In this document: positions 54,875 to 54,947 of the stretch, one piece after another
Position numbering within the stretch: position 1 is the first letter of the stretch
Layout of the letters: each line of letters begins with the position of its first letter
DNA from: a virus
Taxonomy: Duplodnaviria; Caudoviricetes
Reading direction: 5' to 3' (one strand)
Length of the DNA: 64,000 nucleotides
IMG/VR virus record: IMGVR_UViG_3300015615_000196
Span: 1 to 64,000 of that record
The notes under the pieces: model-generated
Databases searched by the model: none
The model's input: the letters and a program-made list of their open reading frames with translations, nothing else
Told to the model about the DNA's origin: nothing
Program-made: the position numbers and the translations under genes

Positions 54875-54947
54875 AGACCGTAACGGGACTCAAACCCGTA
54901 GCTTTTCGTTTTAGGGACGACCACTCTATCAGTTGAGTTATACGGCC
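54875..54947 (-). tRNA. amber suppressor tRNA (anticodon CTA)
   Basis: Acceptor GGCCGTA/TACGGTC; D ACTC/GAGT; anticodon arm TCGT-CCCTAAA-ACGA; T arm ACGGG-TTTGAGT-CCCGT. Confidence 0.8.

Follow-up and report, generated by a model that had tools for sequence, protein, structure and literature searches.

Why does a phage that keeps the standard genetic code carry a tRNA for the amber codon UAG, and where would such a tRNA be used? The question is raised by a 73-nt tRNA(CUA) gene, supA, in the window analysed here, the first 64 kb (64,000 nucleotides) of a 362,603-bp IMG/VR virus record from a jumbo phage. The record has direct terminal repeats, is complete by the CheckV estimate and contains about 60-61 tRNA genes. 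The phage has a T4-type major capsid protein, and its closest relatives in GenBank, with 30-42% identity, are uncultured huge phages and a Microcystis phage. Based on sequence comparison, we propose with moderate confidence that supA is a functional amber-suppressor tRNA and forms one half of a conserved module, the other half being an amber-led gene for a PTH2-like protein. The likely job of supA would then be to read one conserved early UAG in this nearby gene.

The supA gene and its tRNA array

The supA RNA, GGCCGUA-UA-ACUC-AACUGAUA-GAGU-G-GUCGU-CCCUAAA-ACGAA-AAGCU-ACGGG-UUUGAGU-CCCGU-UACGGUC-U, matches the Rfam model RF00005 over its full length (model positions 1-71) with 52.6 bits, the gathering score being 29, and with an E-value of 1.9e-8 for the 64-kb window and 6.1e-11 locally. 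This match and a direct reading of the sequence confirm the 73-nt cloverleaf with the loop CC-CTA-AA that had been described in a first-pass annotation of this DNA. The peculiarities listed there, C33, a 27:43 mismatch, an A19:U56 elbow, G1-C72 and U73, are likewise all present. The acceptor stem (GGCCGUA/UACGGUC) begins with G1-C72 and G2.U71 and leads to the discriminator U73, and the D arm (ACUC-AACUGAUA-GAGU) has an 8-nt loop with G18 and A19. In the 5-bp anticodon stem (GUCGU/ACGAA), a G27.A43 mismatch on top is followed by U-A, C-G, G-C and U-A pairs. The 7-nt anticodon loop, C32 C33 C34 U35 A36 A37 A38, has a purine at position 37 and C at position 33, so that the canonical U33 of the U-turn is absent. 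The variable loop is AAGCU (5 nt), and the T arm (ACGGG-UUUGAGU-CCCGU) brings U to position 56. The usual G19:C56 contact of the elbow is therefore changed to A19:U56 on both sides, a compensated substitution, and the tertiary contacts U8-A14, A15-U48, G18-U55, C13-G22-G46, G26.A44 and U54-A58 are intact. These features identify supA as a real, although oddly built, UAG-reading tRNA gene.

Two special tRNA classes were considered and rejected for supA. ARAGORN labels CUA tRNAs as tRNA-Pyl, the architecture of which comprises a short D loop, a 3-nt variable loop and a 6-bp anticodon stem; the corresponding elements of supA measure 8 nt, 5 nt and 5 bp. A bacterial initiator-type tRNA reading UAG does not fit either, since G1 pairs with C72 and the lower part of the anticodon stem lacks the three G-C pairs of an initiator.

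ARAGORN itself skips supA and calls instead an overlapping tRNA-Ser(tga) at 54837-54924, which could be taken to mean that supA is a chance cloverleaf or that the true gene is the serine tRNA. We consider this extremely improbable. The ARAGORN model is mispaired in its acceptor and D stems and reuses the T arm of supA as its anticodon arm, and we read that call as an artefact, whereas every stem of supA is paired and its local Rfam E-value is 6e-11. Folding of the bare 73-mer by minimum free energy yields a structure other than the cloverleaf (z-score -1.84), which might also speak for a chance resemblance. However, the minimum-energy fold of unmodified tRNAs is often not the cloverleaf, and this result is uninformative.

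The gene is embedded in a minus-strand array (53.8-61.5 kb) that comprises 28 tRNA genes, with tRNA-Phe (55164-55237) and tRNA-Thr (54706-54780) as its neighbours. The coordinates of supA and of the features discussed below are collected in Table 1. Several tRNA-like fragments are also found in the array. The 19-nt sequence GTTGTGGGTTGGA(G/T)TCCCA occurs in two exact copies, at 54846-54864 and 55132-55150 (minus strand), and each copy forms a T-arm-like hairpin with G at position 56, located just 3' of supA or of tRNA-Phe and outside the called tRNAs. Half-tRNA-like D-arm segments lie nearby, and the hairpins could be remnants or processing elements. Another T-arm-like sequence, CTTGTGGGTTCGACTCCCA (61347-61365, minus strand), is located between tRNA-Phe and tRNA-Trp at a site where neither ARAGORN nor Rfam reports a tRNA, and may represent an unrecognised or degenerate tRNA. 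Further tRNA-related functions are encoded near the array by a Thg1-like gene (tRNA-His guanylyltransferase or tRNA 5'-end repair; 40504-41334, plus strand) and a QueC-like gene (32454-33365, plus strand).

Table 1. Features of the supA locus and of its candidate target (window coordinates)
Feature	Position	Strand	Basis and remarks
supA, tRNA(CUA), 73 nt, loop CCCUAAA	54875..54947	minus	Rfam RF00005, sequence; name supA coined here
supA anticodon CUA (plus-strand TAG)	54912..54914	minus	Rfam alignment and sequence; C33 is 54915
T-arm-like hairpin GUGGG-UUGGAGU-CCCAC, directly 3' of supA	54837..54874	minus	part of the false Ser(tga) of ARAGORN
vWA-like gene, between the tRNA array and the PTH2-like gene	52161..52928	minus	phrog_7371; weak Pfam vWA-TerF-like match
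Hairpin then T-run, after the vWA-like gene	52105..52135	minus	sequence; hairpin 52116-52135
PTH2-like gene: ATG, 7 sense codons, TAG, 114 codons, TAA	51655..52026	minus	Pfam PF01981; PDB 2zv3; phrog_1866; translation
In-frame TAG at the ninth codon of the PTH2-like gene, putatively read by the CUA tRNA	52000..52002	minus	sequence; conservation
Small gene, synteny marker; in relatives G002 and G004 its homologue immediately precedes the CUA tRNA	48846..49103	minus	tblastn 50% identity, E 1e-25; phrog_13613

TAG in the phage genome at large

The first-pass annotation had placed an amber suppressor tRNA in a genome that otherwise uses the standard code, and both parts of this description hold: the anticodon is CUA, and no long ORFs are gained when TAG is treated as sense. 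Under the standard code, 89% of the genome is occupied by ORFs of 300 nt or more. The TAG-terminated genes with ends at 6129, 18444, 28785 and 29109, cited as evidence that TAG still terminates translation, all exist as open frames.

Phage CUA tRNAs are typical of code-15 phages, according to two reports (PMC9523058, PMC13037316), and supA could accordingly be imagined to serve an overall or late-block recoding in which TAG stands for Gln. We give this explanation hardly any credence. The number of ORFs longer than 1500 nt in the whole genome is 38 with TAG either as stop or as sense, and TAG terminates 43 of 522 ORFs (about 8%) in a crude non-overlapping set, where the frame beyond the TAG usually closes again after a short distance. 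In a homology screen for in-frame stops, conservation in other frames dominated at first and was filtered out before counting; in the filtered stop-spanning alignments to the whole relatives G002 and G004, TAG sites were no more frequent than the TAA and TGA controls. No convincing TAG was found inside a large gene by homology to the same two relatives. These results agree with the earlier statement that genome-wide recoding has not taken place.

Two individual candidates for an internal TAG were rejected. The TAG at 146807, which is aligned to Tyr in G002 and gave the sole long match, is located 10 residues from the N-terminus and resembles boundary cases among the TAA controls. An in-frame TAG could join the ORFs at 28216-28785 and 28789-29109 (plus strand), which are separated by the TAG and one further codon, but the pair has no Pfam match and no TAG-spanning alignment; we treat the two ORFs as two genes.

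Neither a codon-usage score around every stop nor a 'long leader' statistic separated in-frame stops from gene boundaries or non-coding frames. Back-up stops are not enriched close behind genes ending in TAG (Mann-Whitney p 0.88), from which we gather that suppression by a CUA tRNA in this phage is likely to be weak or temporary, or else leaves no trace. The first-pass annotation had also suggested looking for a phage aminoacyl-tRNA synthetase or release factor. No release factor was found in this phage genome, and none of the synthetase Pfam families searched, including PF00749, PF00152 and PF00587, gave a match.

A conserved early TAG in PTH2-like genes

A candidate target is found 2.85 kb downstream of supA on the same strand, in a gene that begins ATG-AAA-AAA-GAT-CAC-AAC-ATC-GGG-TAG-ATT-TCG. 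The predicted read-through product matches PF01981 with 28.9 bits (cut-off 23) over residues 17-115 and profile positions 2-112 of 115, the match starting 8 codons past the TAG. In the alignment with the archaeal Pth2 structure PDB 2zv3, residue 8 after the TAG falls opposite residue 2 of the structure. Past the TAG, no ATG, GTG or TTG occurs for 61 codons, and the first one is already inside the domain. The phage protein is thus similar to archaeal and eukaryotic Pth2 in that it matches over the whole domain and above the Pfam cut-off, but the match to 2zv3 is a distant one (E 4e-4), in which Tyr stands opposite the Lys of the archaeal GK motif (GY for GK) and the D-A-G segment differs. As this Lys is presumably the catalytic residue, the activity of the PTH2-like protein is uncertain. 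A second, distant PTH2-like or 'hydrolase' paralogue (44293-44790, minus strand; phrog_3668) has 26% identity to the amber-led gene and possesses an ordinary ATG start without an early TAG. The mini-ORF at 51603-51637 (MKKL-stop-IIERPP-stop) was rejected as a second amber-gated ORF, as it has only 11 codons and nothing in its support.

Relatives of the phage were collected from IMG/VR by means of the major capsid protein, which gave 146 records at 70-91% identity, 13 of them at least 90% complete. The search for PTH2-like homologues took in 47 relative records and found the gene in 11, the major capsid proteins of which are 70-79% identical to that of our phage and the GC contents of which are 25-31%, compared with 40.5% here. 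In all 11 relatives, the gene consists of an ATG, 1-3 codons, TAG and then (V/I)KLVT(V/I)TR, a conserved stretch that aligns to residues 2-8 of the solved Pth2. The leaders before the TAG (MK, MKK, MKL, MKR, MT, MR and MENT) vary in sequence and length. The codons after it vary synonymously (GTA/GTT, ACA/ACT/ACG/ACC, AGA/CGT/CGA, GAC/GAT) and the residues are kept, which indicates that the frame is under protein-level selection from the first codon past the stop. TAG accounts for 5-13% of stops in seven clade genomes.

The gene is also accompanied by a suppressor-type tRNA. An ARAGORN-called CUA tRNA is located 0.13-3.7 kb upstream of the PTH2-like gene, on the same strand, in 11 of 11 relatives. 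In most of them the two genes are adjacent; here they are parted by one gene and a terminator-like hairpin, which, with its T-run, would be predicted to split the PTH2-like transcription unit from the upstream genes. Four complete relatives without the PTH2-like gene have 14, 3, 33 and 1 tRNAs, and a whole-genome scan found 0 stop anticodons among these. Gene and CUA tRNA therefore occur together in 12/12 gene-bearing and 0/4 gene-less genomes (Fisher p about 5e-4, kinship ignored), a co-absence count that rests on ARAGORN, which missed supA, so that an odd CUA tRNA could escape elsewhere too. Homologues with other anticodons would, by the first-pass annotation, have spoken against an amber suppressor. 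In fact, the best covariance-model match to supA has a CUA anticodon, as have the PTH2-linked tRNAs of all 11 relatives, and the idea of a 'specialised decoder' gains support from the existence of one conserved target codon.

The early TAG extends beyond the clade. A tblastn search of GenBank phages detected the domain in many further phages. With 10 distant genomes examined besides the 12 of the clade, the early stop is TAG in 22 of these 22 homologues, always followed by a purine. Among uncultured huge phages, the residues encoded before the TAG are MT in LR756504, MNN in LR745206, MKN in LR756502, MK in LR756500, MS in LR756501 and MTH in LR756511. The gene of LR756501.1 has a second in-frame TAG 33 codons past the first. 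The leader is MAQ in Cronobacter phage GAP32 and MSH in Yersinia phage fHe-Yen9-03, each with a CUA tRNA about 3 kb downstream. The mycobacteriophages Bxz1 and Myrna start with ATG-TAG-GTG and GTG-TAG-GTG, respectively, and have a CUA tRNA 130-300 nt downstream, labelled "tRNA-OTHER" and "tRNA-Ser" in their records. Together with LR756500, LR756501 and LR756511, in which the distance is 1-8 kb, a CUA tRNA is found 0.1-8 kb from the PTH2-like gene in seven of the ten distant genomes. For the other three, a whole-record pattern search of LR745206 found no CUA tRNA, and none was found in LR756502 within 4 kb of the gene, the span that was examined. LR756504 has no CUA tRNA call, its sole candidate being a tRNA about 100 kb from the gene (LR756504.1 281058-281085) with an 8-nt anticodon loop, which ARAGORN reads as UCUA. 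The PTH2-like domains of Lak-B1, RAS14 and XacN1 have no stop in the 24-30 codons upstream.

A start-proximal stop would be expected to mislead gene callers, and the annotations bear this out. The amber-led gene is unannotated in fHe-Yen9-03 (LT960552.1 286850-287155), and in GAP32 (NC_019401.1 290150-290449) it is annotated from an internal start only, as the truncated GAP32_397.

The early TAG could also be the true stop of a mini-ORF of 2-9 codons, a regulatory uORF or 'minigene', with the domain produced by re-initiation and the CUA tRNA serving another end, for example general read-through of TAG stops of host or phage, or a role as decoy. Regulation by very short ORFs is known, and the lambda bar minigenes link mini-ORFs with the biology of peptidyl-tRNA hydrolase. 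Nevertheless, we judge this explanation to be very unlikely. Re-initiation should be indifferent to the identity of the stop, yet the stop is TAG in every homologue, although most of these genomes use TAG less than either other stop, and leader and domain invariably share one frame and adjoin each other. In Bxz1 and Myrna the Shine-Dalgarno spacing suits the GTG directly after the TAG, which agrees with initiation at that point and suggests that read-through is optional in these two phages. In contrast, a Shine-Dalgarno-like motif precedes the leader ATG in GAP32, fHe-Yen9-03, LR756501 and LR756511, and the codon after the TAG, which is ATT, ATA, GTA, GTT or AAT in 20 of the 22 homologues, includes three (GTA, GTT and AAT) that are no near-cognate starts. 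Orphan CUA tRNAs do exist in standard-code jumbo phages without known targets (PMC5852040, PMC8504454), but a general or decoy function would not lead one to expect the strict co-occurrence of the PTH2-like gene and the CUA tRNA in the clade. We therefore continue to favour read-through of the early UAG by a phage tRNA.

Candidate readers of the early UAG

Which tRNA would do the reading is complicated by a second CUA tRNA gene, supB, located outside the window at 299220-299292 (minus strand). It is canonical, scores 65.8 bits and has U33, a G18-G19/C56 elbow and G73. The supB cluster also holds a tRNA whose anticodon loop is 6 nt long (298550-298621), another in which this loop carries a 47-nt insert (298869-298980), and a tRNA-Leu(UAA).

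Comparison of supA with other tRNAs required a single-sequence covariance model, since the divergence of supA defeats matching at the DNA level. An exact-pattern search for the supA body in IMG/VR and BLAST of the 73-mer against 20 relatives both gave 0 matches, and megablast of the tRNA array against GenBank phages gave nothing. The 622-aa neighbouring protein led to no relatives, whereas the major capsid protein search succeeded, and the vWA-like neighbour found no close kin in metagenomes above 49% identity. With the covariance model, the best match in the relatives was the PTH2-linked CUA tRNA of G002 (59 bits, 63% identity). Lys tRNAs followed closely, and the tRNA-Lys(CUU) of G004 has the loop CCCUUAA, one base off that of supA; a Lys-tRNA origin of supA is thus possible on grounds of similarity. 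An alignment of 13 CUA tRNAs revealed little in common beyond the tRNA core and the loop YU-CUA-AA. The acceptor stems differ, and the discriminator is A in eight, G in two and additionally in supB, and U in supA only. A36-A37-A38 is present in supA and in every other CUA tRNA compared.

These comparisons bear on the alternative that supA is a weakened or decaying paralogue and that supB is the principal or sole reader of the PTH2-like TAG, which we regard as doubtful. supB has the regular U33 and G18-G19/C56 elbow and outscores supA (65.8 vs 52.6 bits), and supA, the only one of the 13 aligned tRNAs with C33, U56 or U73, is missed by ARAGORN. However, supA has kept all stems and tertiary pairs, and the two-sided change at its elbow is unlike random decay. 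The whole relatives G002 and G004 have one CUA tRNA each, so one appears to be enough, and the anticodon arm of supB resembles those of the PTH2-linked tRNAs of G008 and G005. On the other hand, the anticodon arm of supA resembles those of the CUA tRNAs of G002, G009 and G007, its closest overall match is the PTH2-linked tRNA of G002, and it is supA that lies nearest to the PTH2-like gene and on the same strand.

The C33 substitution is also less exceptional than it appears among CUA tRNAs. It occurs in 9 of 212 ARAGORN-called tRNAs from five clade genomes, including a tRNA-Glu(UUC) with the loop CC-UUC-AA that recurs in four clade genomes and a tRNA-Val in this genome, and these tRNAs seem to be maintained. 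C33 alone, judged by this recurrence, is no sign of decay and can be regarded as a tolerated variant in the clade rather than a lesion. The recurrence of C33, together with the compensated elbow, suggests that supA is a maintained gene. Loops of the form CC-NNN-AA were seen in tRNA-Glu(UUC), tRNA-Lys and tRNA-Val at G000 94877-94950 (this phage) and, in relatives, at G002 106791; G003 328886; G004 201401, 201658, 215133 and 215427; and G012 35602. The variant may have a bearing on how tRNAs evade anticodon nucleases. supB could nevertheless share the reading of the PTH2-like TAG or take it over.

Taking supA as the main reader, we envisage that it would be produced as part of the minus-strand tRNA transcript and, once processed, receive its amino acid from a host synthetase. 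At the ninth codon of the PTH2-like mRNA it would then be in competition with host RF1, so that synthesis of the PTH2-like protein would be confined to times at which a CUA tRNA of the phage is active. Failed read-through would cost just an 8-residue peptide, and TAG elsewhere in the genome would stay a rare, ordinary stop. The identity of the amino acid on supA is probably unimportant because the TAG is in a non-conserved leader. The diversity of acceptor stems and discriminators among the aligned CUA tRNAs agrees with such a position, at which any residue would serve, and explains why the charged amino acid is unreadable from the sequence, as the first-pass annotation had judged.

The purpose of such a gate could be to tie the enzyme to working phage tRNAs, to time its synthesis, or to provide feedback on read-through in the manner of prfB. 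In a more specific version, the CUA tRNA and the PTH2-like enzyme would constitute a self-setting loop in which the UAG reports read-through and the enzyme hydrolyses the acylated or peptidyl suppressor tRNA, thus holding a set level. This version is speculative and quite unlikely as it stands. If true, it would be a tRNA-based analogue of RF2 autoregulation and would explain the joint gain and loss of gene and tRNA.

A conserved UAG at the start of a tRNA-related enzyme gene would provide a natural client for the orphan suppressor tRNAs of standard-code phages, and the module suggests a minimal and portable translational gate made up of one tRNA, one codon and one gene. It also has value for annotation, given that the PTH2-like gene has been left out in one known phage and shortened in another, and a C33 tRNA that a standard tRNA finder refuses may nonetheless be functional.

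Full-text searches found no literature linking a CUA tRNA to an amber-led PTH2-like gene. The closest precedents are XacN1 (PMC5852040), a standard-code jumbo phage with a CUA tRNA for which the authors sought targets and found none, and RsoM2USA (PMC8504454), another standard-code jumbo phage with a CUA tRNA, for which no specific target was named. Both resemble the present phage in being jumbo myoviruses with dozens of tRNAs as well as a CUA tRNA. Those studies dealt with read-through at gene ends, whereas the candidate target described here is conserved and has its TAG at the gene start. The PTH2-like homologue of XacN1 itself is fused to an N-terminal region and has no stop in the 30 codons upstream of the domain.

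The autoregulation of prfB (RF2) offers a parallel of a different kind, as it also relies on an early in-frame stop in a translation-factor-type gene, at which termination competes with alternative decoding. However, prfB depends on a +1 frameshift at a UGA and responds to its own product, while the present module would use a dedicated tRNA, with any feedback by the PTH2-like protein being speculative. The code-15 phages (crAss-like and Lak) share with our phage a phage-borne CUA tRNA and an in-frame TAG in phage mRNA that needs such a tRNA, and the purpose proposed for them is likewise control over the timing of translation of certain genes. They differ from the phage described here, in which the code is standard, a single gene has the conserved TAG, this TAG always lies within the first nine codons, and TAG continues to end genes.
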